DNA of 64,000 nucleotides from an archaeon (GCA_024280435.1 JAJRQD010000109.1:1879-65878); one strand, 5' to 3'. Counted from the first letter of the stretch, positions 11,312 to 56,463 are shown. Numbers and translations are program-made. Notes: generated by a model not told the origin, from the sequence alone.

Positions 11312-11896
11312 TTAATTATCAGATATCAATTCAGTACCATTTTTAAGCAATTCTTTTGCTTCTTCAGGAATATCTTCAAATTTATTCTCACTGATATCTA
11401 ATTCCTTGAGATGATACATTGATTTTATTGATACTGGCAACTCACTGAGATTATTATTTGATATGACCAGTCTTTTCAATTTATTAAGATCAGATATATT
11501 ATCCGGAATTCTTTTCAATAAATTTTTGCTTAGGTTAATATCCTCTATCTCTTCTAACATTGTTATCTCATCTGGAATATGAGAAATCTGATTATTTGAT
11601 AAATTAAGTTTTTTCAGATTTTTCAGATTTTTAATAGTATCTGGAATTACAGCCAATTTCATTGCACTCAAATACAATTCAACTAGTTTATCATTCTCAA
11701 ATTTGTAATTCAGACCATAATTATACAGTTCATCTTTTCTCCAATCTGCATTGCCACCACGTAGCTCCATATCTTTCTCGATCAGATATTTATCATCCTG
11801 TAACCACAGCATGGTATAATGTAGATCTGGATCTGCATCAAGGTTCATTTTATTAACATCTGTAAGGAAATCAATCAGTATATCTTTATCATTCAT
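11312..11896 (-). CDS. Leucine-rich-repeat protein
   Basis: It has five LxxLxLxxNxL units, for example LKKLNLSNNQISHIPDEI, LKRLVISNNNLSELPVSI and LKELDISENKFEDIP. Confidence 0.85.
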   Translation of the reverse strand: MNDKDILIDFLTDVNKMNLDADPDLHYTMLWLQDDKYLIEKDMELRGGNADWRKDELYNYGLNYKFENDKLVELYLSAMKLAVIPDTIKNLKNLKKLNLSNNQISHIPDEITMLEEIEDINLSKNLLKRIPDNISDLNKLKRLVISNNNLSELPVSIKSMYHLKELDISENKFEDIPEEAKELLKNGTELISDN

Positions 11897-28669: not shown

Positions 28670-28909
28670 ATGGAATATAATAAATTCAACATTTATGAAT
28701 TAATAGTTGATAATAATGGGCAGATCAAGCTACCAGATGATATAATAAGCAGATTTAATATCAGAAGTGGTCAGAAACTTATAATGACATTGAAAGATGA
28801 TGAGTTGATCATTCTTCCGAAAATTGAGGATCCTATTTCTATGTTTGCTATGACTGCAAATAAGGATGAAATCAATGAATTTAAGGAATCAAAACTTGAT
28901 TTTGATTGA
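28670..28909 (+). CDS. AbrB/SpoVT/MazE-type DNA-binding protein
   Basis: QIKLPDDIISRFNIRSGQKLIMTLKDDELIILPK matches the swapped-hairpin barrel motif. There is no partner toxin gene nearby. Confidence 0.65.
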   Translation: MEYNKFNIYELIVDNNGQIKLPDDIISRFNIRSGQKLIMTLKDDELIILPKIEDPISMFAMTANKDEINEFKESKLDFD

Positions 28910-28930: not shown

Positions 28931-30268
28931 TCAAATTTTAAATAATTTGTTTCCTAGTTCCTCCAATATTTTATTTTCTTCTTCATTAACAAATTCTGAT
29001 TTTGGAATCTTGCTTGTGATATGATAACTTTCCTGGGCAAATTGTCTTAATCCTAACCTGAATCTTGCATCATCATTTGCAGATAACAGTATATACTTAA
29101 TATCTTTAATTTTATGAAATAATATCACACCATTGTCATGAGTTATAGTATCAATATCTCCTTTACCAGAAACCACCTCTTGAAGAAAGTTGGATAAAGC
29201 AACAACAAAACCAGATATTAATGTGAGTTTTTTCTCACTCTTATTCAAAGCTCTTTCATAAATTGGTAATTCATTTTTAACAATTATAATAAATTCAATT
29301 GCTTTTTTATCCGTTTTTATCTGACTAAACAATGTCTGAGATATATTAACCAAATTATTGATGTTAATATCAACTAATTCTAATATTTTTTTCATTATAT
29401 TTTTATCATCCATTTGAATTTCATTAATTATTTTTTGCCTATTTTCTTCAATTGCGTAATTTTCTAATAACGGAAAATCACTTATATACTTAACAAGTGA
29501 TTGATCAATAAAATCAACTGATAACCACTGTAGCATAAATAAGCTTGCTTTATAATTTTGCATAGCTTTATCTAGGTTTAAATTGTACAACTCAAAATAT
29601 GCTTTTATTACATTTAAATACATGGTTAACAATTTCTGGTCAAATTGATTTGCAAAAACTTCAAGATCAGAGATATATTTCATGACATTATTGTAAATAT
29701 ATTTTTCTCTTGACTGGAAGAATAAATTCATATTTAAAAAACAAAGAGACCTTATACCCTCTATAACATTCACATATTTGTTAATAAAATCATTTATTTT
29801 TGAACTTTCAGTAATATTAATCATTAGTTCTAATATCTCATCTTCATGTGGATGATTATCATAAATTGATAAATTTTTCTTAAGTAAGTTATTAGTAATT
29901 AAATCTTCTTTCTTTTTATTAAATATATCCAATTGATCTTCAATTAATTTTTCAAAAGAATCTTTATCAATTGGTTTGTAAACTACTTTATCGATTTTAG
30001 CATCATTAATTGCATTTACAACGAAATCAAGTTGCAGATCTGCACTCATTAGTATACGTCTAATTTCAGGAAATTTCTCTTTTATTTCAATTAATAGAGA
30101 TACCCCATCTATTTCTGGCATTGAATAATCAGACACCAATATCGCAATATCATTATCAAATAGAATTTTCATACAAGTTTCATAATCATTGGCAACAAAA
30201 ATATTCCAATTATCTTTATAAATTTTGTATAACATTTTAGTTATTATCTTCTCATCATCAATTATCAA
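28931..30268 (-). CDS. Response-regulator receiver fused to a helical linker and a C-terminal Roadblock/LC7 (MglB-like) domain
   Basis: The REC residues are intact (DDE, LVSDYSMP, ILMSA, YKPI). For the C-terminus see feature 29030..29305. The frame is open upstream to 30313 (..NVNVLIIDDE), so the start is uncertain (TTG at 30268 or ATT at 30286). Confidence 0.85.
   Translation of the reverse strand: MIIDDEKIITKMLYKIYKDNWNIFVANDYETCMKILFDNDIAILVSDYSMPEIDGVSLLIEIKEKFPEIRRILMSADLQLDFVVNAINDAKIDKVVYKPIDKDSFEKLIEDQLDIFNKKKEDLITNNLLKKNLSIYDNHPHEDEILELMINITESSKINDFINKYVNVIEGIRSLCFLNMNLFFQSREKYIYNNVMKYISDLEVFANQFDQKLLTMYLNVIKAYFELYNLNLDKAMQNYKASLFMLQWLSVDFIDQSLVKYISDFPLLENYAIEENRQKIINEIQMDDKNIMKKILELVDININNLVNISQTLFSQIKTDKKAIEFIIIVKNELPIYERALNKSEKKLTLISGFVVALSNFLQEVVSGKGDIDTITHDNGVILFHKIKDIKYILLSANDDARFRLGLRQFAQESYHITSKIPKSEFVNEEENKILEELGNKLFKI
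29030..29305 (-). other. Roadblock/LC7-like segment of the REC protein
   Basis: The sequence is KAIEFIIIVKNELPIYERALNKSEKKLTLISGFVVALSNFLQEVVSGKGDIDTITHDNGVILFHKIKDIKYILLSANDDARFRLGLRQF. It parallels MglB-type strand-strand-helix-strand-strand-helix order (compare ..VVFLVDKNGQLI....TSLASLTAGNVAAMGGLAKL......LYMTIV....LVVIFDN.TSLGLVRLRI). Confidence 0.55.
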
Positions 30269-30303
30269 TACGTTTACATTACGAATATAAATTCCCCCAA
30301 TAA

Positions 30304-30870
30304 TTAAAGCATATTATTTAGCATCATTTCTGTAATGCTTTTAAAAGCCGATTCAATATTTGAACAAGTTTTAGCACTTGTTTCAACATATTCTATATCA
30401 AAATGAGGAAAGTTTTTACCCCACTCCCTAAGTACATTAATATAATTCTCAATTTCTTCTTGCAAAATTTCTCTTGAACCATTATTTTCACATAGATCAA
30501 TTTTATTACCCACAATTAATAAGGGAACCATAAAATTATCTGTATTTTTCATATATTCTTCAATCCAATTTGGTATATTCTCAAAACTTGATTTACTAGT
30601 TAAATCATAAACTAGGATTAAACCAGAAGAATTCATATAATATTTATCCCTAACAATTGAAAACCTTTCTTGACCTGCTAGATCCCAAATTTGAAGAACT
30701 ACATTTTTATTGTCAACTTCAATAGCTTTTACAGCAAAGTCAGCACCTAAAGTAACTAGATATTCTTTATCAAAGTTTTGACCAAGATACCTCCTACGTA
30801 TTGATGATTTGCCAACATTTGCATCTCCCATTATTATTAATTTGAATATTGTTTTACTAGTGAAGTTCAC
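30304..30870 (-). CDS. Ras/Rab-like small GTPase
   Basis: The G motifs are G1 GDANVGKS, G2 TLGADF, G3 WDLAGQE, G4 GNKID and G5 ETSAK. There is no C-terminal prenylation Cys. Confidence 0.9.
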   Translation of the reverse strand: MNFTSKTIFKLIIMGDANVGKSSIRRRYLGQNFDKEYLVTLGADFAVKAIEVDNKNVVLQIWDLAGQERFSIVRDKYYMNSSGLILVYDLTSKSSFENIPNWIEEYMKNTDNFMVPLLIVGNKIDLCENNGSREILQEEIENYINVLREWGKNFPHFDIEYVETSAKTCSNIESAFKSITEMMLNNML

Positions 30871-31893
30871 ACTTTACTTATACAGAATTTTTCTTTAAAA
30901 CTTTTTATTATTTTAGGTTATTTTGATAAAAAAAAAGAAAACTGTAATTATTTTGACAAAAAAATTGTTTTATAAACAAATTAAATTTACCAAAGCATAA
31001 ATCAGATAATTATCACTAAAAGTATTATATTGAGTAAAATATTATCTTAAATTCATAAAGATAAAATATCCATAGAAATGAAGAATTGATTTTTCTTGTA
31101 ATTTAAAAATAATATCTGATATTATTTTTAATAGATCTCAATCTCCACGAATTTCATTTAATCCAGATGTAATATCACAGTATATTCCTGTGACCTTCTA
31201 ATTATTTGCTTATCTCTACAAACTATCTCATCAGATCATCTATAATTACCTTTGGTTCTATAATCCAAAATAATGTACTCATCCCTCTCCCATTGTCTTA
31301 GAGTGAATTTCGATACACATGCTAATTTTCATACTTGAACTATACTGATATCCAGATTTACATACCCAACTTTTGATATTATTTTGATTAATACCATCCC
31401 AATATCAGTGAAATGTACTTTTGAGTGGAATATTGGATAAATATCCATTTTTAATCGAAAAAACACATAATCTTAGTTTAGGAGGAAGCTCCTCCCAAAC
31501 AATGTTGTGAATCTTAGCAAATATACAGATCGCCACAATTAACCACCGCATACCTGTTTTAAGTCCTGAAAACTTGCGTTTAAGGATTTTTTTTTAATTT
31601 TGTTAATGAATTTATTGAGAACTAGAGGCTCTATTATTAGTGACATTAGTAATTATTAGTCATAGACTCTCTATCTATTAATATTTTGGGGACTATATGC
31701 AATAAGCAGTGAGTTTCTAAAATTTACAAATTTATGAACTGAAACGCTCATAATGCTTTAAGATAATTTTGGGAAATGCTTTATTTAATCTAAGTATATG
31801 ATTTAACATAATCTTAAATAAACTCATATTATTACACAAAATAATAGAAATTTTAGATATTGTTATTATATTTTAAAGATAAATAAAATAATT

Positions 31894-32457
31894 ATGAAAA
31901 ATATTATTCTAAAGCTAGTATTAATAGGAGATGGAAGAGTTGGAAAAACATCGATTCGTAAAAATTATATGGGTTATGGGTTCACAAAAAGTCATTTATC
32001 AACATTAGGTGCTGATTTTTCAGAAATATCAAATAAATTTAAATTTGGAAATGATGAAATTAAAGCTAAATTACAAATTTGGGATGTTGCAGGTCAAAAC
32101 AACTTTCAAAAAATAAGATTAAGATTTTTAACTAGAGCATCTGCAATCATATTAGTATATGATATAACAAATATGTCATCTTTTCAGAATTTACCAAATT
32201 GGCTAAAAGAAGTTTGGTCTGTGAATAAATCAAAAGATTTGCCCATATTGATACTAGGTAATAAAATTGATCTAGAAGAAGATAGGGAAGTTCCTTATAC
32301 TTTAGTTGAAAAATTTAAAAATGATCTAATTGATAAATTAAAAGAGAAAGTTGAGATAATTCATATTGAAACAAGTGCACTAACAGGTCAAAATATAAAA
32401 CAAGGTTTTGAAACAATCACTTTATCATTCTACAAGAATTTGTTAAAAACGCAATAA
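31894..32457 (+). CDS. Ras/Rab-like small GTPase
   Basis: The G motifs are G1 GDGRVGKT, G2 TLGADF, G3 WDVAGQ, G4 GNKID and G5 ETSAL. Confidence 0.9.
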   Translation: MKNIILKLVLIGDGRVGKTSIRKNYMGYGFTKSHLSTLGADFSEISNKFKFGNDEIKAKLQIWDVAGQNNFQKIRLRFLTRASAIILVYDITNMSSFQNLPNWLKEVWSVNKSKDLPILILGNKIDLEEDREVPYTLVEKFKNDLIDKLKEKVEIIHIETSALTGQNIKQGFETITLSFYKNLLKTQ

Positions 32458-32653
32458 AATTTGAAACTAGTTGATTATCAAAAAATATATTTGTTTCAAG
32501 TAGGTTAAATGTGTTCCAAATTAGTGTATTAATAATATCAAAGATGAATTAAGTGTATTTTAGGTGCAAAATTATTGTAGTAGACAAATATCAGCTAAAG
32601 TTTTAAGTCACGTTTAACAATATAATTTAATTTGTAGAAATTTTAATTAATTC

Positions 32654-35170
32654 TTACACATTTATACTTGGCTTATTATTAACGATAGGAATAAAAATGC
32701 TAAAAGTTGTACCAACGTGTTTTATACTATTAACAGAAATATTACCATTCCAATCTCTAATAATTCCATATACTGTTGATAATCCTAAACCTGTACCCTT
32801 TCCTGGTTCTTTAGTTGTAAAAAATGGTTCAAAAAGGAGAGGTAATTCATTTTCTTGAATTCCTATTCCGTGATCTTTTATCTGTAAAAGTAAATAATGA
32901 TTTTTGTTTTTCATTTCTGGAAAAACAAATTTACCAAATTCATTTTTAATTAATTCACTTCCTAAGTTTGAAACATTGAAATCATCATCAATTAGTACCT
33001 TTCGCACCTTTAGATCTATAATTCCACCTTGAGGCATAGAATCTTTTGCATTTAATACTAAATTCAAAATAACTTGTTCAAATTGTACAGGATCTCCATT
33101 TACAAATATATTTTCTTGAGATTGGTTTAATTCTAATACATACCTTTTACCTAGAAGTCTTCGAAGCATTGTACAAGTTTCATTAATAACTTCAAACACA
33201 TGAAATACCTTTGAATTTGTATCTCTTTTCTTACTGAAGTCCAGTAATTGTTTTGTAATTGAATTAGCTAACTTTACATTATTTTTTATTTCAATAACTT
33301 CTGCTTTAAGAGGACTATTTTTTGGTAGCTCATTTAACATATAATCTGCACACAGTGATATACCAGTTAAAATATTTTTATAATCATGTGAGATACCTCC
33401 AGCTAATCTACCAATAGCTTCCATTTTTTGAGATTGACGAAGTTGTTCTTCTATCATTTTTTCATTAGTAATGTCTTTTTGAACGGATAAATAGTTTACT
33501 ATTTTTCCTGATGAATCTACTATTGCAGATATTGAATTTGAAATCCAAAAATACTCACCATTTTTCTTTTTATTTTTCAATATACCTCTCCATTCTTTCT
33601 TATTTTTTATTTTACTGTATAAATCTTTATAGATTAATGAATTTGTAATTTCTGTGTTTAGAATATTTATATTCTTTCCCACAATTTCCCCATGAGAGTA
33701 ACCAGTTATCTCACAAAATTTAGGATTTACATACTCAACAATACCATTTATATCTGTAATAATTACAATACTTGGACTTTGTTCAACAGCTTTTATCAAT
33801 TTAGATAACTCTATTTTCTGTTTAGCTAACTTTTTCTGAATTTTTTGAATTTCAGTTTGGTTTCTTAAGGTTTTAATTCCAAAAGATAATGTTGAGGCAA
33901 AATTTTTTAGAAAATTAATTTCTTGTGTATCAAATACATTTTCTGCTGTTGTATACACTGAAAGTACACCAATTGTTAAGTCATTTATTTTTAATGGTAA
34001 CAATATTGATGAGTAATTAATTGGTATTTTTCCAATATTTTTATTTTTTTCAATTAGCTTATCAAGATAAATATCTCTTTGAATTATCATTTCTCCTTTT
34101 TTTAATACTGTTTCAATAATATCAATATTATATCGATATAATACATTTTTAAAATTCATTAGAGATTGAGCTGTAGTATCATTTTTAATTGCCTCAATTG
34201 TAAAGTTATCCCCATTACAATTATTCGAATAACCAATCCATGCAATTTGATAACCTCCTGTACTTGTAAGTATATTACATATTTTTGGTAAAATTATTTT
34301 TTCATCTGTCTCATAAAATAAAATGTCCATAGAACCTATTATACAATTTAAAATTCGATTCATTCTTTGAATCGATGTAGATTGTAACAAGATTTTTCGT
34401 TCTATACTTTTTCTTATTCTAATGTCTTGAATTATAGCTGTAAATAAAATCTTTTTATCAATAATTATTTCAGAAACTGAAATTGATATATCAATTAGTT
34501 GATTATTTTTCTTCAATCCTTTTACTTCAATTATTTTCCCTTTAAAAGGTCCCATGTTTGATTGTTTATAATTAAAAAGAGAGAGTTTATGTTGATCATG
34601 ATAGTTATCAGGTATTAAAACTAATATATTTTTTCCTAACAACTCATCTTTTGTATATCCAAATAATTCCAATGCTGATTTATTAATATCTTTAATAATA
34701 CCTTGTTTATTTATTGTGATTACACCATCGATTAGAGATGACAAAATTGTTTTATATTTTTCCTCACTTTCTAAAAGTTGCTTTCTTGTAATTGTTAATT
34801 GTTTTGATTTATCTATATTATTAATAATTCTTTTAATTGTTAATGGTAATTTTTTAATGTGTTTTGATGACTTTAAAATATAGTCTTCCAAACCAGATTT
34901 CATAGCTTCAACAGCTATTTCCTCACTTCCTGTTGCAGTATACATAATAACAGGACAATTTGGATGTTTTTGTTTTATTTCTTTTAAAATATAGATACCA
35001 TCACTCCATTGTAATTGATAATCAGTTATTACAATATCAAAATTATAATTATTATTATATTTATGAAATAACTCTATATTATTTATTTCAATAATATTTA
35101 GATTAGATAAATTCCTATCAAGTTCACGTTTAATTAAGAAGCGATCATCAGGATTATCATCTATAACCAA
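32654..35170 (-). CDS. Hybrid sensor histidine kinase (REC-PAS-GAF-PAS/PAC-HisKA-HATPase_c)
   Basis: It has an N-terminal REC (VIDDNPDD, ITDYQLQ, YTATG, ILKS) and two PAS cores (DGVITINKQGII.., SIVIITDINGIVEYVN..). It also has the H-box GGISHDYKNIL and the N, G1 and G2 boxes (LNLVLNAKD, DHGIGI, GTGLGLS). Confidence 0.9.
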   Translation of the reverse strand: MVIDDNPDDRFLIKRELDRNLSNLNIIEINNIELFHKYNNNYNFDIVITDYQLQWSDGIYILKEIKQKHPNCPVIMYTATGSEEIAVEAMKSGLEDYILKSSKHIKKLPLTIKRIINNIDKSKQLTITRKQLLESEEKYKTILSSLIDGVITINKQGIIKDINKSALELFGYTKDELLGKNILVLIPDNYHDQHKLSLFNYKQSNMGPFKGKIIEVKGLKKNNQLIDISISVSEIIIDKKILFTAIIQDIRIRKSIERKILLQSTSIQRMNRILNCIIGSMDILFYETDEKIILPKICNILTSTGGYQIAWIGYSNNCNGDNFTIEAIKNDTTAQSLMNFKNVLYRYNIDIIETVLKKGEMIIQRDIYLDKLIEKNKNIGKIPINYSSILLPLKINDLTIGVLSVYTTAENVFDTQEINFLKNFASTLSFGIKTLRNQTEIQKIQKKLAKQKIELSKLIKAVEQSPSIVIITDINGIVEYVNPKFCEITGYSHGEIVGKNINILNTEITNSLIYKDLYSKIKNKKEWRGILKNKKKNGEYFWISNSISAIVDSSGKIVNYLSVQKDITNEKMIEEQLRQSQKMEAIGRLAGGISHDYKNILTGISLCADYMLNELPKNSPLKAEVIEIKNNVKLANSITKQLLDFSKKRDTNSKVFHVFEVINETCTMLRRLLGKRYVLELNQSQENIFVNGDPVQFEQVILNLVLNAKDSMPQGGIIDLKVRKVLIDDDFNVSNLGSELIKNEFGKFVFPEMKNKNHYLLLQIKDHGIGIQENELPLLFEPFFTTKEPGKGTGLGLSTVYGIIRDWNGNISVNSIKHVGTTFSIFIPIVNNKPSINV

Positions 35171-35377
35171 TATTTGTGTAATCTCATCTGAAATGTATCA
35201 AACCTCCATATTATTATTTTATGGTTCGTATATAACTATAACCATAATTTTATATTTAACTTTATACTAATTTACTTTAATAAAATATGTATAAATCAAT
35301 AGATAAATCCTCGATATTTATATATTTTTGATGAAAAAATAATATTTCACCATAATTATTTCATGACACTAATTTTA

Positions 35378-36367
35378 TCAATTTGGAACCATGCATTTTG
35401 ATAATTCAATCCAAAAAATAGAATATTCAGATGGAACAGATTCCACACCAAACCTTCCATTCATTCTTTCAATTCCTTTTTTAACTATTGAAAGACCTAT
35501 CCCTGTGCCCGGATATTGCTCTTCACTGTGTAGTCTTTCAAACACGTTAAATATTTTTTCAAAGTTTTTTTCCTCTATACCTATACCATTATCCTGTATA
35601 TTGAGTCTAACAAAATTGGGTTTATCTTCACTCCAGATATTTATTTTAGGTCTGTCTTTATTAGCACTGAATTTGATTGCATTTCCTATGAGATTAGCAA
35701 TTATTTTATCTAATAATGTGTTACTTCCATAAACACATCTAACTGGTAATTCTAATTTAATAGAAACATTATTTTTTATTATACTTTCTATATTCTCTCT
35801 TATTGCATCTCTGATTAATATTTTCAAATCTAAATTTATAAATCTTAATTCTTTATAACCAATTTTATTGTATAAAAGAAGATCTTGTATCAATTTATCC
35901 ATTTTTATAACTGAGTAATTAATACGGTAAAGCATTTGTTTTCCATAAATATCTAAAACATCAGAATAATCTTCATTAATAGCGTTTGCATAGCCTTGAA
36001 TTGATCTTAATGGTGCTTTTAAATCATGAGTAACTGAAAAAACAAATTCAATGAAATCTTGATCTTTCATTTCTAATTCATTATTTTGTATTTTAATTCT
36101 ATTATCTATTTTAACAGCATCTAAGTTTAATCTATCAATTTTATTTATTAATCCTAATTTTGTATAGTATTCCTTTACAAGAATGATAATCGATAGAATA
36201 CTAAAAGTAAATGAAAATAATGATAGGTTATTAACAATTTCATTAAATGTTTGATAACTAAAAAATAACATACGGATAAAACCGATCAGAGCAACAAGTA
36301 AAACAATATTAAAAATCACAATTTTATCTATTTTAGTTAGAATAAATCTCATACAAATTAATTTCAA
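35378..36367 (-). CDS. Membrane-bound histidine kinase
   Basis: It has two N-terminal TM helices, the H-box FSVTHDLKAPL, and LIGNAIKF, DNGIGI and GTGIGLS. Confidence 0.9.
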   Translation of the reverse strand: MKLICMRFILTKIDKIVIFNIVLLVALIGFIRMLFFSYQTFNEIVNNLSLFSFTFSILSIIILVKEYYTKLGLINKIDRLNLDAVKIDNRIKIQNNELEMKDQDFIEFVFSVTHDLKAPLRSIQGYANAINEDYSDVLDIYGKQMLYRINYSVIKMDKLIQDLLLYNKIGYKELRFINLDLKILIRDAIRENIESIIKNNVSIKLELPVRCVYGSNTLLDKIIANLIGNAIKFSANKDRPKINIWSEDKPNFVRLNIQDNGIGIEEKNFEKIFNVFERLHSEEQYPGTGIGLSIVKKGIERMNGRFGVESVPSEYSIFWIELSKCMVPN

Positions 36368-36418
36368 TATTAATAATAATAGTTTTTGACTTTTGTTTAA
36401 TAATTTATCATTTTTTAT

Positions 36419-38182: not shown

Positions 38183-39921
38183 TTACTCACCTCCAACTCA
38201 GGTAATTCATAGGTATGTTCAAATAATTTTCTATATTCAAGAGATGTACGTAGTATCTCATGATGAGGCCCATTAGCAACGATACTATTGTTATCAAAAA
38301 CAATAACTTTATCGGAATCTGAAATTATTGATAATCTATGAGTTATAATCACTGAGGTTCGGGTTTTCAGTACTGTTTTGATTGCACTCTGTATCTGATA
38401 CTCAGTCTCGGCATCAAGAGCAGAACTTGCATCATCCATTATCAGTACTGATGGATCAATGATCAGAGCACGTGCAATAGCTATTCTCTGCTTCTGACCA
38501 CCAGACAGTGTAATTCCTCTCTCTCCAACCAGTGTATCATATCCTTCATTGAATGATTGTATGAATTTATCAGCCTTGGCCATCTTTGCAGCATCAATAA
38601 TCTCATCCATAGTTGCATCAGGTCTACCAAATGCAATATTACCACTTACTGTATCTGAGAAAAGAAATATCTCCTGTTCAATACTAGATATCTGTGATCT
38701 CAGAGTATTACTGTCATACTCACCTATTTTTGTTCCATTTATCAGTATCTCTCCCTGCTGTGGATCATACAATCGCAGTAATAGTTTGATAAAAGTTGAT
38801 TTACCAGATCCTGGTCCACCGACAATTGCAATAGTCTCACCTTTTTTAATCTCAAGATTGATATCTTTCAATGCCCATTCTCTATCATCACTATATCTGA
38901 AAAAAACATTTTTGAATTCAATACTTTCCTCTATTCCAGTAAATTCTTTATTTCCAAATTTAAGATGAGGTATATCATCCTCCATCATTTCCTGTAATCT
39001 CTGTGCAGCTGCAATCATTCTGACAGTCATATTGACAATTCTTTTGATTCTGCGGCTCATAAACTGTATCAAGGTGATTAGACCTATGAACACTACAAAT
39101 TCACCCAGTGAGAGGTCATTGATTGAGATCAAATAAACTCCATAGACCACTGTCAAAGCAAGTACAATATTTATCAATAAAGATGGTGGATAGAAAGCCG
39201 ATAGCATACCAAATTTTCTCACATGGCCTGCATGTTTCTCTGAAATCTGGGAGAATTTATCCACACCTATTTTCTCAGCATTATAACTTTTTAATTCATT
39301 TATACCTCTGAATAATTCATGTGAATTCACACTTAACTCACCAAATACCTCACGAAGTGCAATACTCTCAGGCCCAAGTTTTTTTCCATAGTAATATACA
39401 AGTATCACATAGATTGGGAATGATACAAATAGTAAAATTGATAATTTCCAATTTATATAAATAAATACTGCAAGTGAGGTGACAAGCAGAGTAGCAATCT
39501 GTATTAAAATTCTTATTGCAGGAGAAAGACCGATATTAATTGCACGTGTATCTCCAGTTGCCCGTGCCATCAAATCACCTATTTTTATACCATCATGATA
39601 ATGTAATGGTCTAAACTGTAATGCTTGGTATAAGTCTGCGGTCATATCTGTGGTCACTCTATGGGCATGTAATTCATTGATTACTGCAACTATATAGAAT
39701 ACAATTGCCTGTACTGTGACCAGAATTAAAAGATAGATTATCCAATCAATTATCTCAGAGATGGCTGCGTTTGTGACAAACAAATCAATTATTTTTCCAA
39801 TTATCAAATTAGGACTTGAAAATAGTATAATCTCAATTACAGATCCTACAACAGTGATGAAAAATAAAATTGGGTACCTATTCAGATAACTAACTATCCA
39901 TTTAATTTCCTTGTTTTTCAC
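38179..39921 (-). CDS. ABC exporter half-transporter (TMD-NBD); Walker B Glu replaced by Asp
   Basis: It has Walker A GGPGSGKST, signature LSGGQKQ and Walker B VLIMDD (Asp in the catalytic Glu position). Confidence 0.9.
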   Translation of the reverse strand: MKNKEIKWIVSYLNRYPILFFITVVGSVIEIILFSSPNLIIGKIIDLFVTNAAISEIIDWIIYLLILVTVQAIVFYIVAVINELHAHRVTTDMTADLYQALQFRPLHYHDGIKIGDLMARATGDTRAINIGLSPAIRILIQIATLLVTSLAVFIYINWKLSILLFVSFPIYVILVYYYGKKLGPESIALREVFGELSVNSHELFRGINELKSYNAEKIGVDKFSQISEKHAGHVRKFGMLSAFYPPSLLINIVLALTVVYGVYLISINDLSLGEFVVFIGLITLIQFMSRRIKRIVNMTVRMIAAAQRLQEMMEDDIPHLKFGNKEFTGIEESIEFKNVFFRYSDDREWALKDINLEIKKGETIAIVGGPGSGKSTFIKLLLRLYDPQQGEILINGTKIGEYDSNTLRSQISSIEQEIFLFSDTVSGNIAFGRPDATMDEIIDAAKMAKADKFIQSFNEGYDTLVGERGITLSGGQKQRIAIARALIIDPSVLIMDDASSALDAETEYQIQSAIKTVLKTRTSVIITHRLSIISDSDKVIVFDNNSIVANGPHHEILRTSLEYRKLFEHTYELPELEVSK

Positions 39922-40078
39922 AATGTCATTTTATTTATTCTTTTTTTAATTACTTGTAAATGAGCAATAATGAATGGAGCTAGTGTAATATATTTCTACT
40001 ATCGAATTACAGGCAGTCTCTATGCTAGAAACAGTAGTAATTATCTAGCCCCCGGGATAAATAATAATTATAGTAAAG

Positions 40079-40270
40079 TTATGTTATTGTTATCTCCTGA
40101 TCATACACAAATTCAATCTCAAAATAGTCCCCATTGTATTTGGGGATTATTCTGACCAGAAAAATTGATAAAACACTAGCATTATCAGTTACATGGATTT
40201 TAGGATTAATATTAATTCCAATTGTAAGATTTAAAAACTGAACAAAGATAATCGAAAGTAATTTTTTCAT
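40079..40270 (-). CDS. Possible small secreted protein
   Basis: The 63-aa ORF has a signal-like N-terminus (MKKLLSIIFVQFLNLTIG). Support is weak. Confidence 0.25.
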   Translation of the reverse strand: MKKLLSIIFVQFLNLTIGININPKIHVTDNASVLSIFLVRIIPKYNGDYFEIEFVYDQEITIT

Positions 40271-40277
40271 CTAAAGT

Positions 40278-40868
40278 ATGCGTTTAAACAAAAATTACCA
40301 CCAATATATTAAAGATACAGTTTACATGTTAACATGGTTGTCTAAAGTTTCAAATAAAACAAAAATTGTGTTAATTGGCGATTCGAGGGTGGGAAAAACA
40401 TCTCTTAGACGGCAGTATATGGGTGATTCGTTCAGAGGTACGTATAGTGCCACTATGGGGGCAGAATTCAGTGTCAAGAAATTAAAAGATAATATCATAA
40501 CAATCTATGATCTTGCAGGAGATCCAAAATCCAAAATATTCCGAATGCAGTATTATCCGGGTACTCAGGGAGTATTAATGGTTTTTGATGTTAATTCTAG
40601 GAATTCATTTGAAAATATACGTGTTTGGATTGACGAGATCAGAGAAAATATCAAATCTCAGCTTGTCATATTTATTCTTGGTAATAAAATAGATCTTTTT
40701 GATAATTCATTGGATCCAGTAACCGAGGTTGAGGCGTATAAACTGAGCAAAGAGCTCGAAGAAGAATTGGGGTGCTCTGTATCCTATTTATCTACCTCTG
40801 CCTTAACAGGTCATAATGTAGATGTTGCGTTTTCTAAAATACTTGCTGAGATCCAATTCAGATATTAA
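40278..40868 (+). CDS. Ras-like small GTPase lacking the catalytic Gln (G3 = DLAGD)
   Basis: The G motifs are G1 GDSRVGKT, G2 TMGAEF, G3 YDLAGDP, G4 GNKID and G5 STSAL. An alternative start is the ATG at 40326. Confidence 0.85.
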   Translation: MRLNKNYHQYIKDTVYMLTWLSKVSNKTKIVLIGDSRVGKTSLRRQYMGDSFRGTYSATMGAEFSVKKLKDNIITIYDLAGDPKSKIFRMQYYPGTQGVLMVFDVNSRNSFENIRVWIDEIRENIKSQLVIFILGNKIDLFDNSLDPVTEVEAYKLSKELEEELGCSVSYLSTSALTGHNVDVAFSKILAEIQFRY

Positions 40869-40958
40869 ATACATTTATTAATAAAAAATATTAAAAAATA
40901 ATGCAATAAAAAATTTACAGCTATTATCTTTATTAATTGAAAGGTATAAAAGATTAAT

Positions 40959-41576
40959 ATGGAGATTTCTGAATTAAGGGGGTTATTAATTGGCTCAAAA
41001 GCAACCGGAAAGACCACTTTCATAAGACGTTTATCTAGAACTAAAAAGAGTGAGTATGGTTTGACTATGAAATCAACAGATTACAATATTGAATTACAGA
41101 TTCCAAAAAGAGATGGAAGTGTAGTTTCAGTATCGGTAATAATCTCAGATACTCCTGGACAGAGGGATTTTGCATATCAATCTTTCTCAGATGGTATAAA
41201 AACTGATTTTATTGTGATGTTCTATGAGACAAATACACTGGATACTTTTAATCAGTTATCAATTTGGCTTGCTGATATTAAAAATCTAGGTATAATAAAA
41301 AATCGTAAATTACCAATATTCTTTGTAGGTAATAAAATTGATCTCAAGGATGATAGAATGATTTCAGATCAGTATATAGAGGCATTTTTGGATAGTTTCA
41401 AAAAAAGATACAATTGGGATGCACCGGTACAGCATTATTTTATCTCTGCAATTGATTCCAGCACTTTAGATATACTAACAGTACTAAGAAGGATGTTTGT
41501 GATAACTTATAAGCATATGAAGGCATTTAATATTCAACCAACACAGGAAATTTATAGATTAGGAGGATTTACATGA
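40959..41576 (+). CDS. Divergent small GTPase (Roc/Arf-like G3)
   Basis: The G motifs are G1 GSKATGKT, G3 DTPGQ, G4 GNKID and a G5-like ISAID. Its stop overlaps the LRR gene start (ATGA). Confidence 0.75.
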   Translation: MEISELRGLLIGSKATGKTTFIRRLSRTKKSEYGLTMKSTDYNIELQIPKRDGSVVSVSVIISDTPGQRDFAYQSFSDGIKTDFIVMFYETNTLDTFNQLSIWLADIKNLGIIKNRKLPIFFVGNKIDLKDDRMISDQYIEAFLDSFKKRYNWDAPVQHYFISAIDSSTLDILTVLRRMFVITYKHMKAFNIQPTQEIYRLGGFT

Positions 41577-42379
41577 ATTTAGATAATTTGGATCCAGAGA
41601 CTGTGTCAATAATTAAAAAAGAGATACATGGAATGACTTATCTTAATCTTGGAGGGTATAAACTTGATAAGATACCAGATTTTGTATTTGATATGGATAA
41701 TCTTGGTTATCTTGACTTATCCTACAACAATTTATCAGAGATAAATGAGATCCCATCTGATTTGATCTATCTATCAATCAGATACAATAATATCAAATAT
41801 TATGATTTTGCAAATAAAGGTTTGAAAAGAATTATTTTAGAGGGAAACAGAATAAATGAAGTACCACTGATCAATTCTGATAACTTACTTGCGATTAATT
41901 TATCATTTAACAAGCTGGAGCAGTTTCCAGAATTAAAAACTAAAAATCTAATTTTACTCAATTTACATGGAAATAGAATTTTTCATGTGCCAGATGATTT
42001 GTGTAGACTGAGTAATCTAGTCAAATTATATTTGGGTTTCAATAAAATAGAGAGATTACCGGATTGTTTTGGAGAACTTCAGGATCTCAAATTTTTCAGT
42101 ATTCAATCTAATAATTTACTTGAGATACCTGCGAGTACATTCAAGATATTCAGGCGAATACATTTTGATTTTTCAAATAATTATGAGTTGAGAACACCTT
42201 TGAATGATATTAATTCTATGTCTCTGGTGAATTACGGTGTGGAAGCACCTTCTATCAATGTATATTCAGATCCCAAGTTAAGAGAGAATACTAGAAAAAG
42301 ATCCTCTGACAATGTAGAGTTTCCATGGGAGAAGGAGATCGCAATCAAAGAAGAATTATACAGAAGAATCATGATCTAA
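41573..42379 (+). CDS. Leucine-rich-repeat protein, translationally coupled to the preceding GTPase
   Basis: There are about 8 LRRs, for example LGYLDLSYNNLSEI, LLAINLSFNKLEQFP and LVKLYLGFNKIERLPDCF. AGGAGG lies 6 nt upstream of the ATG. Confidence 0.85.
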   Translation: MNLDNLDPETVSIIKKEIHGMTYLNLGGYKLDKIPDFVFDMDNLGYLDLSYNNLSEINEIPSDLIYLSIRYNNIKYYDFANKGLKRIILEGNRINEVPLINSDNLLAINLSFNKLEQFPELKTKNLILLNLHGNRIFHVPDDLCRLSNLVKLYLGFNKIERLPDCFGELQDLKFFSIQSNNLLEIPASTFKIFRRIHFDFSNNYELRTPLNDINSMSLVNYGVEAPSINVYSDPKLRENTRKRSSDNVEFPWEKEIAIKEELYRRIMI

Positions 42380-42474
42380 CTATATGCAAATATTTACAAA
42401 TTAATTCAGATATGATTATAAGCATCCAAATATATTTTTATAAGCATATACCTAGTTTAGATATATAAAGTACT

Positions 42475-43311
42475 GTGATTACTATGTACGAGGAGATAAA
42501 AAATGAGATCAGAGCCACTGGATATACTGGTGAGCTGGATTCATATAACCGGATAGAATTGTTAGCAATTCTTGAATTTGGTGATCCACGTGCATTCAAG
42601 CAGATAGAGTACGATTTCTCAGAAGGACAGAATGTGAATTACTCACTTGGGACTATTGATAAATTCATCCGTACTCCCAAAGAACGAGCCACAATATCTA
42701 AATTCAAAAAAATTATGAATTATCTTGATAATTTACCCGAGAAATACTCAGCAGTGAAGAAGCATATAAGAAATTATGATATGGATAGATTGATTGTAGC
42801 ACTTGAAAACTACAGATCCACAACTATCCTCAGAGTACTAATTATTCTCGTCAAAGAAAGGGCCAATGAATTTGGTGTAAATTGTGATATAAATGAATTC
42901 AAGGAAATATACAGAATTACTCGTCTCAATGTGATAAATAGTAAGTCAATTCTGTTAAATGCAAATATCATCTCTAATATCAAAAAAGATACTCTGATGA
43001 TACAAGTTCAGAATATATTGTTGCAGTACAAAGAGGAACTAGGAGATGAATACATGCAAGTACTAAGTGTTTGCAAATCATTCAGAGATAAATTCCCTGA
43101 TGCAATCAAAGGCAAACTATCAGCAGTTGTGGTGACATTGCTATCTATCAAGTTGGTAACTGGTAAATCCAGTGTTGATCTGGCAAAAAGCTATTCTGAG
43201 AATTATAGACCAATATATCAGAAATTATACAGAGCAGAGAAACGAGATGTAAACTACAGAAATGAGTTATCAATTGTGAACAAAGATAATTCAATAAATT
43301 ATTTTGATTAG
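42475..43311 (+). CDS. Helical hypothetical protein (possible cyclin-box/TFIIB-core-like repeats)
   Basis: The 278-aa ORF contains KGKLSAVVVTLLSIKLVTGKSSVDLAKSY, which is reminiscent of the cyclin-fold helix pattern. Support for this is weak. Confidence 0.5.
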   Translation: MITMYEEIKNEIRATGYTGELDSYNRIELLAILEFGDPRAFKQIEYDFSEGQNVNYSLGTIDKFIRTPKERATISKFKKIMNYLDNLPEKYSAVKKHIRNYDMDRLIVALENYRSTTILRVLIILVKERANEFGVNCDINEFKEIYRITRLNVINSKSILLNANIISNIKKDTLMIQVQNILLQYKEELGDEYMQVLSVCKSFRDKFPDAIKGKLSAVVVTLLSIKLVTGKSSVDLAKSYSENYRPIYQKLYRAEKRDVNYRNELSIVNKDNSINYFD

Positions 43312-43397
43312 TAAAATTTATACAATTTATGGAGATATATTGGTAAAGTATATATTCAAAGGGCAGAATTACTGTTTGTCAGCAATGGTGAAATTAA

Positions 43398-44036
43398 TTG
43401 GAAACAGATAGTGATATTATTGATGGATTAATTCAATCCATATTACATCAAATGCCTAAGATTTCTGCACTAGCATTGGAATTTATAAACTCGGAGGATC
43501 TTGAGAGACTATCCAATATCTGTTTATTCAAAGACAGAACTGATATTATGAGATACACAGTTGCTTTGGTAATGAATCGAATGTATGAATTCGAGGTTGA
43601 GTATGAAGAAGAAGAATTTTTGATGTATTTTAATTTAATCAAAAGAGAAATATGGCAAATACAAGCTGAATTATTGCAAAAAATACCATCAACCGAGGTA
43701 GAGGGATGGAAGACAAGAAAGCTGATAAAAGAAGCCCATGATATGATCGATGAGATGACTGGAAAATTCATAGATAAAGATATGGTGGACATATTAAAAA
43801 AACAGATTGATTTGTTACCTGGAGATCATCCAAAGATATTTCAAAGAAGAAGAGGACAATCTATTGGATTACAACTTGTTTTCCTTGTATTGACAATTAT
43901 TGAGGGTAGTGAGGTAAAAGATGTATTGAAAAGATATGAGGAGATGTATGAAATGACAAGAGAGGATATTTATCCGTTGTATCAGAGTACTAAAAGAATT
44001 TACTATCGTATGCTTTATCTTGGAAAGAGAAATTAA
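43398..44036 (+). CDS. Helical hypothetical protein, similar in style to the preceding gene
   Basis: The 212-aa ORF contains RRRGQSIGLQLVFLVLTIIEGSEVKDVLKRY. It has a TTG start. Confidence 0.5.
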   Translation: METDSDIIDGLIQSILHQMPKISALALEFINSEDLERLSNICLFKDRTDIMRYTVALVMNRMYEFEVEYEEEEFLMYFNLIKREIWQIQAELLQKIPSTEVEGWKTRKLIKEAHDMIDEMTGKFIDKDMVDILKKQIDLLPGDHPKIFQRRRGQSIGLQLVFLVLTIIEGSEVKDVLKRYEEMYEMTREDIYPLYQSTKRIYYRMLYLGKRN

Positions 44037-44074
44037 AAATACTATTGGAATATCAACTGATAAATATGATTTTA

Positions 44075-44974
44075 TCAAAATTTGATGGTTACTGGACCAA
44101 TTGGAGTGAATGTGGTCATTCTCTTGGGTTTTATTCCAGAAGGAAATTCATAATTCTCTTCCCAGAGGTCTTCCTCTCTCTTTCTGTATATCTCCTCCTT
44201 CTCTCCTTTCTGATATGATTTTCCACCAACAAATCCATGCAGTGCAATATGTGATTTCAGTAATCCAAGTATGAGTATGATCATCTGATCATCACTCCAG
44301 TTCTCAGAGATAGATGCCTGTTGAATATATATGAAATTTGCCTTGCTAGCCTTTCCTGGAATACCTGCACCGGAATAATGTCCTTTGGTGAACCTGCCGA
44401 TGACAGTTATCTCAGGAAGCTCATCCATCTGCTGTTTGTGTTCACTTCCCCAGGTATCTGAATAGTTGGTGAGATAGTTCAAATGAAATCCATTACAGAT
44501 ACCCGTTGCATTCTCTGCTGCATTGATCAGTTTTGAAAGAGAGTATTTATCATGTACATCATGACCATAGTATGTCAATTTGATATTCTTTTTGTAAGCA
44601 GTTTTGATAAAATCTGCTCCAATCTGTTCCACCCCATCAAATATTGCCTTCATTCGATCCATTGTTTTGTAATTCCTAAGTGTGTGTATCAGAAATGTGG
44701 CACGTTTGCCACCCATCTTCTTGAGTATTGATGCAAATCTGAGTGAGAAAGTAGCACCCTCCATATATCCAGTAACCATATCATGTTTGGTACCTGTACG
44801 ATGTCCATCAAGTATCAGGTATGGTGACAGATATTTTAGCATTTCAAGATCATCCACAGACATATTCATGGTATCAAGTGATTGCAGTATAAAATTATAG
44901 ATTTCTTTTTCTTCTTTTTTAATTGGTTTTATTAAGGACATGCAATGTATAATTTCATGTTTGTTTATAAACAA
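44075..44974 (-). CDS. Hypothetical protein, possibly a divergent cis-prenyltransferase (UPP synthase-like) fold
   Basis: The motif order parallels UppS: LILDGHRTG (IMDGNGRWA), TFLIHTLRNYKTMDR (TLYAFSSENWNR), NIKLTYYGHD (NVRLRIIGD) and LNYLTNYSDTWG (LNIAANYGGRWD). The functional call is low confidence. Confidence 0.4.
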   Translation of the reverse strand: MFINKHEIIHCMSLIKPIKKEEKEIYNFILQSLDTMNMSVDDLEMLKYLSPYLILDGHRTGTKHDMVTGYMEGATFSLRFASILKKMGGKRATFLIHTLRNYKTMDRMKAIFDGVEQIGADFIKTAYKKNIKLTYYGHDVHDKYSLSKLINAAENATGICNGFHLNYLTNYSDTWGSEHKQQMDELPEITVIGRFTKGHYSGAGIPGKASKANFIYIQQASISENWSDDQMIILILGLLKSHIALHGFVGGKSYQKGEKEEIYRKREEDLWEENYEFPSGIKPKRMTTFTPIGPVTIKF

Positions 44975-45224
44975 AAATCATGATCTGATAATGCATGAGG
45001 ATAAATTCATACTGATGATAAAATAGCTGAATGATCTGAGGAGAGATCCGGAGATGATTATAAATTACACTGAGTGTCTGCTGCAATTCGATCGGGATAT
45101 GCTGATCGATGATATTGTCTCAATCAACAGAATAGTTATGTGAATATCTGTACTGTTAATCTACAGTTTCACAATTATATTTTTATAGTATCACTGTGGA
45201 TATTGTATTTGCGGATATTACATT

Positions 45225-46505
45225 ATGAGTACTGTGGAGGAACAATACAACAAATTACTGCTTGAGAGTAAGTTACTGCAGGAGAATAATCTGAATAGAT
45301 ATTTGGAGAGATATAAGGATAGTTTCATTGATAATCTTAATAAGGGAATTGTTGATCTATCAGATAGAAATTTGAGTATTATTCCCATGTCATTATTAGA
45401 GATGGATATCAGAGAACTTAATCTCAGGAATAATAACTTTGAGATATTACCGGATAGTTTTGGAAAATTTAAAAATCTTGAGAAACTGGATCTCGAAAAT
45501 AATCAACTCACCACCTTACCAGATAGTTTTGGACAACTGCAAGAACTCTGGAAACTAGATCTCGGTAGTAACCAATTCACCACATTACCGGATAGTATTG
45601 TAGAGTTAGAAAATCTAAAGAAACTATATCTCAATAATAATAAACTGAGTACATTACCAGATAGTATTGGACAACTGCAGAATCTTGAGAGACTATATCT
45701 CGATGATAATCAACTCACCACAATCCCGGACAGTATTGCACAACTGCAGAAACTTGAGAGACTAGATCTCTGGGGTAATCAACTCACCACATTACCGGAT
45801 AATATTACACAATTGAAAAATCTGGAATTGCTAGATCTCAGTAATAATCAACTCACCACAGTACCGGATAGTATTGGACAACTGCAAAAACTTAGAGAAC
45901 TATATCTCAGTAATAATCAACTCACCACAGTACCGGATAGTATTGTACAACTGCAAAATCTTAAGAACCTAAATCTAAAGAATAACCAATTCACCACATT
46001 ACCCGAAAGTATTGCACAACTACAGAAACTTGTGAGACTATATCTCAGTAATAATCAACTCACCACAATCCTGGACAGTATTTCACAATTGAAAAATCTG
46101 GAATTGCTAGATCTCGAGTATAATCAACTCACCACATTACCTGATAGTATTGTAGAGTTAGAAAATCTAAAGAAACTATATCTCAGTTATAATATACTGA
46201 CCACAATACTGGACAGTATTGGGCAATTGAAAAAACTTGAGATACTGCACCTTATTAGAAATCAATTAACATCATTACCGGATAGTTTTGGACAACTGCA
46301 AAATCTTGCAGAACTGAATCTAAGGGAAAATCAATTGACCACATTACCAGATAGTTTTGTAGAGTTAGAAAATCTTAGGGAATTAAATCTCGAGAATAAT
46401 CAACTGAGCTCAAGACCAGATTACATTGATGATTTGAATTATCTTGAGGAATTATATCTAGATGGTAATAAATTCTATACAGATAAATATTTACCTGATA
46501 TTTAA
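45225..46505 (+). CDS. Leucine-rich-repeat protein with about 16 consecutive 23-residue repeats
   Basis: The repeat consensus is LxxLxLxxNQLTTLPDSIGQLQN, the same type as Roco/SHOC2-like LRRs. Confidence 0.9.
   Translation: MSTVEEQYNKLLLESKLLQENNLNRYLERYKDSFIDNLNKGIVDLSDRNLSIIPMSLLEMDIRELNLRNNNFEILPDSFGKFKNLEKLDLENNQLTTLPDSFGQLQELWKLDLGSNQFTTLPDSIVELENLKKLYLNNNKLSTLPDSIGQLQNLERLYLDDNQLTTIPDSIAQLQKLERLDLWGNQLTTLPDNITQLKNLELLDLSNNQLTTVPDSIGQLQKLRELYLSNNQLTTVPDSIVQLQNLKNLNLKNNQFTTLPESIAQLQKLVRLYLSNNQLTTILDSISQLKNLELLDLEYNQLTTLPDSIVELENLKKLYLSYNILTTILDSIGQLKKLEILHLIRNQLTSLPDSFGQLQNLAELNLRENQLTTLPDSFVELENLRELNLENNQLSSRPDYIDDLNYLEELYLDGNKFYTDKYLPDI
45400..46440 (+). repeat. Array of 69-bp coding repeats (LRR units), some nearly identical
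   Basis: 45577-45633 and 46129-46185 differ at 1 of 57 nt. Confidence 0.85.
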
Positions 46506-52426: not shown

Positions 52427-52428
52427 AA

Positions 52429-56460: not shown

Positions 56461-56463
56461 TGT

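Follow-up and report, generated by a model that had tools for sequence, protein, structure and literature searches.

Between positions 28931 and 46505 of a 64,000-nucleotide stretch of archaeal DNA (GCA_024280435.1, JAJRQD010000109.1:1879-65878; the whole stretch is referred to as the window, and has a G+C content of about 31%), genes for Ras-superfamily GTPases lie beside genes of two-component signalling, leucine-rich repeat (LRR) proteins and an ATP-binding cassette (ABC) exporter pair. A sequence-only reading of the window had taken these 17.6 kb for one functionally linked network. The locus raises the question of which of these genes belong together. It was found that comparative support exists only for the left 7.4 kb (28931–36367), where adjacencies recur in relatives, and that the full 17.6 kb is a mosaic and not one island. 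We propose that the left part is a five-gene signalling module, in which a phosphorelay probably switches a longin platform for the adjacent Rab-like GTPases. The features of this part are listed below (ORF, open reading frame).

28931..30268, minus strand: response regulator with a receiver (REC) and a longin-type domain (REC-longin), 445 aa; Pfam Response_reg E 1.7e-13, AlphaFold2 (AF2) and Foldseek; hub of the conserved module
30304..30870, minus strand: G1, Rab-like small GTPase, 'type A'; Pfam Ras E 2e-46
30871..31893: spacer of 1023 bp with no ORF of at least 50 aa, parting G1 from G2
31894..32457, plus strand: G2, Rab-like small GTPase, 'type B'; Pfam Ras E 6e-41
32654..35170, minus strand: cytoplasmic hybrid histidine kinase with REC, PAS-like sensor, GAF, PAS, HisKA and HATPase_c (Pfam)
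35378..36367, minus strand: small membrane histidine kinase with two predicted transmembrane segments, HisKA and HATPase_c (Pfam, hydrophobicity)

Conserved neighbourhood of the regulator

REC-longin proteins form a small family. When 1.84 billion representative proteins were searched with a profile built from the sequence outside REC, 73 matched, about 30 of them full-length (430–480 aa, with the same layout). A scan of species-representative genomes for the family returned only one contig (L001), and a first metagenome scan returned no relative. The contigs of eight family members were examined. The near subfamily comprised seven distinct loci, including the window, with about 29–38% identity to the window protein. 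The order of genes in these loci is given below, with percentage identity in brackets.

Window: G1 (type A), 35 bp, regulator; type-B GTPase diverging across a 1-kb spacer; then hybrid kinase, membrane kinase
L001 (37%): kinase, membrane PAS kinase, REC-PAS hybrid kinase, GTPase (opposite strand), regulator, GTPase, Kelch
L002 (36%): GTPase, regulator (4-bp overlap), GTPase
L003 (34%): GTPase diverging from regulator; contig end
L004–L006 (36–38%): PAS kinase, PAS kinase (4-bp overlap), regulator, kinase-REC, small gene, GTPase
L011 (30–38%): regulator, GTPase, GTPase
L012/L013 (about 36%): tetratricopeptide repeat (TPR) protein, GTPase, regulator, REC, small gene, PAS kinase, REC-PAS kinase

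A Ras-like GTPase lay within three genes of the regulator in all seven near-subfamily loci and was its immediate neighbour in six of them, in variable orientation. PAS histidine kinases were present in each of the four loci that had enough flank; in L004 the kinase gene and the regulator gene overlap by 4 bp. Both window GTPases and both window kinases have best-match counterparts in L001, and the five genes are shared with local inversions. These adjacencies are kept at about 29–49% protein identity, with order and orientation shuffled. Since proximity that outlasts shuffled order at such identities is the usual sign of selection, the linkage is likely under selection. A gene of the endonuclease/exonuclease/phosphatase family (Exo_endo_phos) adjoins the module GTPase in L004 (12679–13524), and another adjoins a TPR-longin gene in a further locus, L014 (5068–5841).

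For control, 80 metagenome loci (518 kb) surrounding other Rab-like GTPases were found with a type-B GTPase alignment (33–47% identity). These contained 92 GTPases and one weak longin match. No histidine-kinase core was detected in the 518 kb, even at E ≤0.01, compared with ten in about 60 kb of regulator loci, and the same kinase profile recovered the two L012 kinases, which had not been used in building it. Kinase adjacency is therefore specific to the regulator loci and not general to neighbourhoods of Rab-like GTPases. With about 0.074 GTPases per 4 kb, as in the control, immediate adjacency in six of seven loci corresponds to P ~1e-6 if the loci are independent, which, owing to shared ancestry, they are not fully.

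The control loci included contigs named SMTZ1 and WOR8, names that we take to come from the estuarine-sediment studies first describing Thorarchaeota. Small GTPases number in the dozens in Asgard archaea, which also encode many proteins of the longin and Roadblock types. L001, the one relative of the regulator with a taxon label, carries the title Candidatus Heimdallarchaeota archaeon isolate CSMAG_823; it belongs to a cold-seep metagenome-assembled genome (PMC10491686). All related loci are low in G+C (28–36%). An Asgard origin of the window contig is likely. The earlier suggestion that the locus is typical of Asgard-type genomes is plausible on these grounds, and the gene content matches that of published Asgard genomes (bioRxiv 10.1101/2020.10.19.343400).

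The regulator joins a receiver to a predicted longin-type domain

The full-length regulator was modelled with AF2 on a 24-sequence alignment, with a mean predicted local distance difference test score (pLDDT) of 81. The predicted layout is a REC domain (residues 1–100), a long helix (102–137, about 36 residues), an all-helical bundle (141–300) and a C-terminal longin-type domain (about 320–445). Pfam Response_reg matched residues 1–109 with a score of 51.1 bits against a gathering cut-off of 30.2. When read from a TTG start at 30268, the REC active site is complete (D4–D5, D47, S75 and K98–P99), and these residues are kept in most of the 24 family members. The public gene call (P0001, 434 aa) begins at Met12, and the acidic pair DD of the receiver is thereby lost; the TTG start gives back the acidic pocket, and the N-termini of homologs agree with it (30236–30268). 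Looking up the exact sequences of three window proteins, P0001 among them, gave no record.

Foldseek returned REC structures only for the full-length model, with template modelling (TM) scores relative to the target (TMt) of 0.83–0.89 and a root-mean-square deviation (rmsd) of 1.2–1.5 Å. The C-terminal domain was also modelled alone (pLDDT 82.8; predicted TM score, pTM, 0.70). Its predicted topology is α-β-β-α-β-β-β-α-α, with strands at 35–42, 45–51, 83–88, 91–98 and 101–107 and helices at 57–76, 112–129 and 140–154 of the domain model. The best Foldseek fits in PDB were VAMP7 (4afi), sedlin/TRAPPC2 (2j3w) and the TRAPP core (7b6d/7kmt), with TM 0.57–0.60 and rmsd 3.0–3.5 Å over about 130 columns. 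Roadblock structures (LAMTOR, dynein LC7 and two Asgard Roadblock structures) fitted worse, with TM scores relative to the query (TMq) of 0.35–0.46 and rmsd of 6–10 Å.

No Pfam model reached threshold in the roughly 330 residues after REC. The last 122 residues gave sub-threshold matches to Fuz_longin_1 (E 0.087) and Intu_longin_1 (E 0.09), which describe the first longin domains of Mon1/Fuz and Ccz1/Intu, respectively. Among the 24 family members, three matched Intu_longin_1 and two matched Fuz_longin_1, all below threshold; the best relative, a distant protein with a TPR N-terminus, matched Fuz_longin_1 with E 1.3e-4 (22.6 bits against a cut-off of 26.1). Robl_LC7 matched neither the window regulator nor any of the 24 family members, and one distant TPR relative matched it below the cut-off (E 0.0028). 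A Roadblock/LC7 (MglB-like) identity was consequently rejected, given that Roadblock structures also fit worse than longins. On the strength of the models, the C-terminal domain is best described as a longin-type member of the longin/Roadblock fold group. The earlier name of the protein, REC-Roadblock, is thus right in its first half and in the fold group that it implies, and the label Roadblock gives way to longin.

In longins that act as GTPase-activating proteins (GAPs), such as FLCN, NPRL2, SMCR8 and C9orf72, an arginine finger lies about 50 residues past a GP motif. The GP motif itself is found just before strand 2 (PMC12290439). At this place the regulator family has a nearly invariant proline (P335), preceded by L, M, F or I. 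An arginine (R404) is nearly invariant after strand 5, and no Arg is kept in the β3–β5 hairpins.

The same longin type occurs in other arrangements. At L012, a 652-aa TPR protein (5004–6962) carries it at the C-terminus (E 9e-13, local search), and its gene adjoins both the GTPase gene and the REC-longin gene. It is possible that the TPR-longin and REC-longin proteins of L012 form a heterodimer, like Mon1-Ccz1 or FLCN-FNIP. The TPR-longin architecture is also found in P0047, P0048 and P0054. The idea that this longin type is generally GTPase-linked was set aside, as the locus of TPR-longin P0048 (L014) has no GTPase nearby. In a separate locus, L047, a protein of about 266 aa (100–897) begins with a longin-like domain that shares the LISGF...A..F motif, and its C-terminal half is hydrophobic. 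This protein may be a longin anchored in the membrane; its gene lies 2.7 kb from that of a Rab-like GTPase.

GTPases and kinases of the module

G1 lies 35 bp upstream of the regulator gene on the same strand. Both G1 and G2 have the complete set of GTPase motifs (GxxxxGK[ST], the switch I Thr, DxxGQ, NKxD and SAK/SAL); in G1 these read GDANVGKS, TLGADF, WDLAGQ, GNKID and TSAK. The catalytic Gln is kept in G1 (WDLAGQ) and in G2 (WDVAGQ). The top PDB matches of G1 were Rab43, Rab35, Rab1 and Rab8 (E ~1e-35 to 1e-33), together with a Thorarchaeota Rab. In a MAFFT alignment, the GTPases most similar to G1 were those that accompany the regulator in L001, L002, L003, L004 and L011 (41–48% identity). 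G2 shared 59% identity with the GTPase directly downstream of REC-longin in L002 and 43–45% with that of L001, and the three formed a clade in a neighbour-joining tree.

No C-terminal Cys prenylation motif was present in G1 (...EMMLNNML) or G2 (...KNLLKTQ), and for this reason the two were not placed in the strict eukaryotic Rab family. MglA has an atypical G3 region. Membership of the MglA family was rejected, since all GTPases of the stretch have a canonical DxxG and there is no Robl_LC7 gene nearby. Two further features of the GTPases beside the regulator may be recorded. The type-A GTPases (G1 and those of L001–L004) have about 13 extra residues between NKxD and SAK, with a conserved Trp (e.g., LREWGKNF); the Rho insert helix lies at roughly this position. 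The L012 GTPase (6974–7717) has WDINGD as its G3 motif and a C-terminal tail with Cys pairs resembling a zinc ribbon.

The spacer between G1 and G2 has a centre (about 31130–31570) with a GC fraction of 0.35–0.40, against 0.15–0.25 in its flanks, and contains frameshifted minus-strand ORF fragments and a perfect 29-bp palindrome (31103–31131). No other copy of it was found in the window or in the related loci. An RNA gene was considered and rejected, as Rfam gave no credible match in the spacer; no tRNA was found in the whole window. The spacer is probably a decayed gene or a relic of an insertion sequence that moved the type-B GTPase away from the regulator. On the other side of the regulator, a gene for a 79-aa AbrB/SpoVT-like protein (28670–28909) converges on the regulator gene at a distance of 21 bp.

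The hybrid kinase has no hydrophobic segment, and is 45–48% identical over its full length to the L001 hybrid kinase, whose gene lies two genes from REC-longin; the GAF domain of the window protein is extra relative to this counterpart. The membrane kinase has hydrophobic segments at residues 7–41 and 44–66 and is 41% identical to a kinase of L001 (HK1) over the kinase core. With H-boxes reading THDLKAPL and SHDYKNIL, both kinases look active from their sequences.

Proposed mechanism

A signal received by the PAS/GAF or membrane parts of the kinases would lead them to autophosphorylate, and the phosphoryl group would then be passed to Asp47 in the REC domain of the regulator. Phosphorylation would rearrange the regulator or dimerise it through the long helix that follows REC. 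Dimerisation is thought probable, because longin/Roadblock domains generally act as dimers. The longin domain would serve as a switchable platform, for the type-A GTPase first and then for type B where it is present, and would set their nucleotide state. We infer the phosphotransfer, the physical contact and the way in which the GTPases are affected. For small GTPases, longin and Roadblock domains serve as platforms (PMC3747258). Action as an exchange factor or platform is the more likely, since this is the commoner longin role (PMC12290439), the profile matches are weakly of the Mon1/Ccz1 type and the GP motif is only half present.

Several observations weigh against this proposal. The longin assignment itself rests on predicted structure: no Pfam longin profile reached its gathering score for the regulator or for the relatives scanned, and when PDB sequences were searched with one profile for the C-terminal domain and one for everything outside REC, nothing matched, even at E ≤10. 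The far members of the family at L007 and L008 (about 25% identity) have no GTPase nearby, although the L007 contig stops about 120 bp downstream. The seven near loci share ancestry and are not independent samples. The catalytic Gln in G1 and G2, together with the conserved R404, leaves room for GAP action. Lastly, the regulator of L002 (P0003, 1177–2511) has lost the phospho-acceptor Asp (YEH in place of SDY) and Pfam calls no REC in it, yet both GTPase types still flank its gene. Phosphorylation is therefore not always needed, and the retention of both GTPases by a regulator without the acceptor suggests that, within the module, the link between longin and GTPase came earlier and is more fundamental.

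The remainder of the 17.6-kb stretch

The other genes that had been assigned to the same network are listed below.

36419-38182 and 38179-39921, minus strand: ABC exporter pair, half-transporters (ABC_membrane and ABC_tran; Pfam), overlapping by 4 bp
40278..40868, plus strand: G3, Ras-like GTPase; Pfam Ras E 1e-35
40959..41576, plus strand: G4, divergent GTPase, ORFan; Pfam Ras E 1e-14
41573..42379, plus strand: LRR protein, 268 aa; Pfam LRR_8 E 1.6e-16
42475-43311, plus strand: protein of unknown family, 278 aa; without Pfam, NCBIfam or PADLOC match
43398-44036, plus strand: protein of unknown family, 212 aa; without Pfam, NCBIfam or PADLOC match
45225..46505, plus strand: LRR protein, 426 aa, almost all repeats; Pfam LRR_8 E 1e-78
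11312-11896, minus strand: further LRR protein, outside the stretch (Pfam)

As an inventory, the sequence-only reading was accurate. All four Ras-superfamily GTPases (30304, 31894, 40278 and 40959) were recovered by Pfam and by a local six-frame profile search, which found exactly four small GTPases in the 64 kb, all of them within 28931–46505. Pfam also recovered the LRR genes at 41573, 45225 and 11312, the REC-PAS-GAF-PAS hybrid kinase, the membrane kinase (with its two hydrophobic segments) and the ABC pair, and the two proteins of unknown family gave no match, as listed. A density of GTPases beyond chance was borne out to a limited extent. Thirty-one control loci, each 8 kb or longer (376 kb together) and centred on other Rab-like GTPases of sediment metagenomes, contained seven extra GTPases, or about 0.33 expected per 17.6 kb; three extra GTPases beside an index gene correspond to a Poisson P of ~0.005 for a region picked post hoc. 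The enrichment is modest and the density figure alone is weak, the synteny evidence being much stronger.

The ABC pair and the membrane kinase share a strand, the pair being 51 bp upstream, and they may be co-transcribed; the gap from membrane kinase to hybrid kinase is 207 bp. The MsbA-like Pfam/NCBIfam matches of the pair were below cut-off. The distant REC-longin relative L008 also adjoins an ABC exporter pair and a gene with a methyl-accepting chemotaxis protein (MCP) signalling domain (L008 3751–12376). The window has an MCP gene at 47132–48280, the signalling domain of which is 42% identical to that of L008, and the two ABC pairs are 31–36% identical. Such identities are generic, and the shared neighbours may be a coincidence; on the same grounds the ABC pair was not accepted as part of the module.

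The five genes from 40278 to 44036 (G3, G4, LRR and the 278-aa and 212-aa proteins) lie on one strand with gaps of 86–95 bp, and from this spacing the cluster looks like an operon. G4 and the LRR gene at 41573 overlap by 4 bp, so placed that the LRR protein is probably translationally coupled to G4. The G3 motif of G3 is YDLAGDP, which lacks the catalytic Gln expected in DxxGQ; G3 and the L012 GTPase may, to judge from these motifs, be hydrolysis-deficient or need a residue in trans. No specific ortholog of G3 was found in the related loci. Word-indexed searches of a database of 5.8 billion clusters found no homolog other than the query's own entry, either for G4 (E ≤1e-5) or for the 278-aa protein (cut-off 1e-3). 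The weak PDB matches of G4 included Rab, Ran and the LRRK2 Roc domain. A split Roco protein (G4 plus LRR) was rejected, as there is no COR domain in G4 or its neighbours and G4 is not specifically Roc-like. The 278-aa and 212-aa proteins are not similar to each other and were therefore not taken as paralogs. A defence island was also rejected, ten proteins of the region having no PADLOC match.

The earlier reading required that at least some of these adjacencies be conserved in relatives. This held for regulator, GTPases and kinases; neither an LRR gene nor a counterpart of 40278–44036, generic Ras similarity aside, was found in any related locus. A Kelch protein and a transporter come after the module in L001. 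In the window, the second LRR gene, the ABC pair and the cluster of two GTPases, LRR and two orphans look like lineage-specific neighbours, tied to the module by position alone.

Some genes farther along the window were also noted. A 299-aa protein (44075–44974) gave a weak match to prenyltransferases of the undecaprenyl-diphosphate-synthase type (E 0.0013, below cut-off). FG-GAP repeats, bacterial TSP3 repeats and an N-acetylmuramoyl-L-alanine amidase domain (Amidase_3, E 6e-38) were found in three consecutive giant ORFs (48581–60792; 1281, 1343 and 1442 aa). A peptidoglycan amidase is unexpected in an archaeon, and bacterial partners might be its target.

Alternative explanations

Granting that the module is real, its longin domain could be a GAP like FLCN, NPRL2 or SMCR8, so that phosphorylation turns the GTPases off. 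The catalytic Gln of G1 and G2 is what would be expected with an arginine finger supplied in trans, nearly invariant residues stand at the place of the GP motif (P335; PMC12290439) and at R404, and the Asgard longins found fused to two-component domains have been called NPRL2-like (bioRxiv 10.1101/2020.10.19.343400). We nevertheless regard GAP action as somewhat unlikely: the residue before P335 is never G, no Arg is conserved at the finger distance given above (after GVILFH, K or R occurs in only about half of the members), and the top Foldseek matches are VAMP7, sedlin and TRAPP, not GAP longins. The regulator could also stand below the GTPases as an effector or adaptor, binding the GTP form and joining it to the kinase signal with the nucleotide state unchanged. 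There is a precedent in Myxococcus, where a REC protein complex binds MglA-GTP as an effector and not as an exchange factor (PMC13408092), and the large helical middle domain (141–300) could carry other partners. Longin and Roadblock domains are, however, mostly known as exchange-factor, GAP or platform modules (PMC3747258), and an effector role seems unlikely to us.

The reading in which LRR proteins, all four GTPases, ABC exporter and two-component genes work as one network over the whole 17.6 kb can point to four GTPases where about 0.33 extra were expected, to the ABC pair and both kinases lying on one strand with the gaps of 51 and 207 bp, and to the ABC pair and MCP gene beside the distant relative at L008. 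It is made distinctly unlikely by the absence of LRR genes and of the 40278–44036 cluster from all related loci, by the ORFan status of G4 and the 278-aa protein, by the generic identity of the ABC pairs, and by the different genes that follow the module in L001. Very improbable is the opposite extreme, namely that the genes adjoin through inherited order, or simply because GTPase and signalling genes are dense in these genomes, and that their adjacency is devoid of functional meaning. Asgard genomes are indeed rich in both classes, with most eukaryote-like genes outside conserved neighbourhoods (bioRxiv 10.1101/2020.10.19.343400; PMC10933270), and L007 and L008 have no GTPase. Against this, proximity is kept at about 29–49% identity despite shuffled order and orientation, the immediate adjacency in six of seven loci has P ~1e-6 with the loci treated as independent, and the control gave no kinases in 518 kb compared with ten in about 60 kb. 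A kinase-switched longin platform for G1 and G2 stays the reading that we consider probable. That a prokaryotic phosphorelay directly gates a longin regulator of Rab-like GTPases as a working hybrid pathway is a bolder proposal, which we put forward tentatively as one that could be correct but may well not be. As each regulator has two different GTPases, and one relative a second longin paralog, such a pathway could be a GTPase cascade of primitive kind or an exchange factor made of two longins.

Relation to known systems and significance

The closest published parallel is found in Asgard archaea themselves, where longin domains of the NPRL2-like type frequently occur as fusions with two-component domains (bioRxiv 10.1101/2020.10.19.343400, Fig. 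5c). As in the present regulator, a two-component domain and a longin are joined in one Asgard-type protein, which suggests two-component systems driving eukaryote-like regulators. Those proteins were reported as fusions; the conserved neighbourhood of Rab-like GTPases and kinases belongs to the present module, and its domain is assigned to the longin type in general, not to the NPRL2-like longins or to the Asgard orthologous groups (asCOGs) concerned. Full-text literature searches gave no description of a conserved module of one regulator, two GTPases and kinases. The module is a variant of the known Asgard longin/two-component fusions, and, as far as these searches reach, the conserved pairing of regulator, GTPase and kinase is new.

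Bacterial systems combine similar parts differently. The MglA/MglB/RomR-RomX system of Myxococcus (PMC4316618, PMC13408092) likewise has a Ras-like GTPase, a regulator of Roadblock/longin fold, a REC protein and a phosphorelay; here, in contrast, REC and longin form one polypeptide, the GTPases are Rab-like with DxxGQ, there is no Robl_LC7 match, and there are two GTPases per regulator. In the actinobacterial conservon (CvnA kinase, CvnB Roadblock, CvnC and CvnD GTPase; PMC4316618), a kinase, a Roadblock/longin-fold protein and a small GTPase are also clustered, but there is no response regulator and the GTPase is MglA-like, whereas in the present module REC stands between kinase and longin and no CvnC-like gene was found among the Pfam matches.

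The eukaryotic longin complexes Mon1-Ccz1, TRAPP, FLCN-FNIP, GATOR1 and C9orf72-SMCR8 (PMC3747258, PMC12290439) share with the module the longin fold, predicted here, and Rab-like GTPases. The weak matches to Mon1/Fuz and Ccz1/Intu profiles point the same way, and the second, TPR-longin paralog at L012 recalls their heterodimeric pairs. The module differs from them in its proposed control by REC phosphorylation and in the half-present GP motif, and its matches to their sequence profiles stay below threshold. REC-NitrOD3 of Thaumarchaeota is likewise an archaeal response regulator with a Roadblock/LC7-related output; it is of another lineage and family, and in the parts of the source that were searched (PMC5847659) the term GTPase is absent, so that no link to GTPases is described there. 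In Roco proteins (LRR-Roc-COR), a GTPase and LRRs are united, and the 4-bp overlap of G4 with the LRR gene at 41573 means that GTPase and LRR are probably made together here also; in the window, however, these are separate genes in the order GTPase then LRR, with no COR and a GTPase that is not specifically Roc-like.

In MK-D1, the genes of small GTPases are generally not in operons with Roadblock, longin or TRAPPC3 genes (Tran et al., PMC10933270), which makes the matching of regulators to GTPases hard. The module matches one regulator with two specific Rab-like GTPases and with their likely controlling kinases, conserved as neighbours. Such a regulator-GTPase pairing is rare, and it is open to biochemical test with five recombinant proteins. 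It bears on whether the eukaryote-like GTPase machinery of Asgard archaea runs on two-component signalling, as Liu et al. proposed from fusions; these authors suggested that Asgard regulation has stayed centred on two-component systems and found most eukaryote-like genes outside conserved neighbourhoods (bioRxiv 10.1101/2020.10.19.343400). If the bolder proposal of a directly gated hybrid pathway is true, the module would represent a surviving intermediate stage that links two-component signalling with the eukaryotic longin complexes acting as exchange factors or GAPs, and an Asgard GTPase would for the first time be matched by the genome itself to its own regulator.

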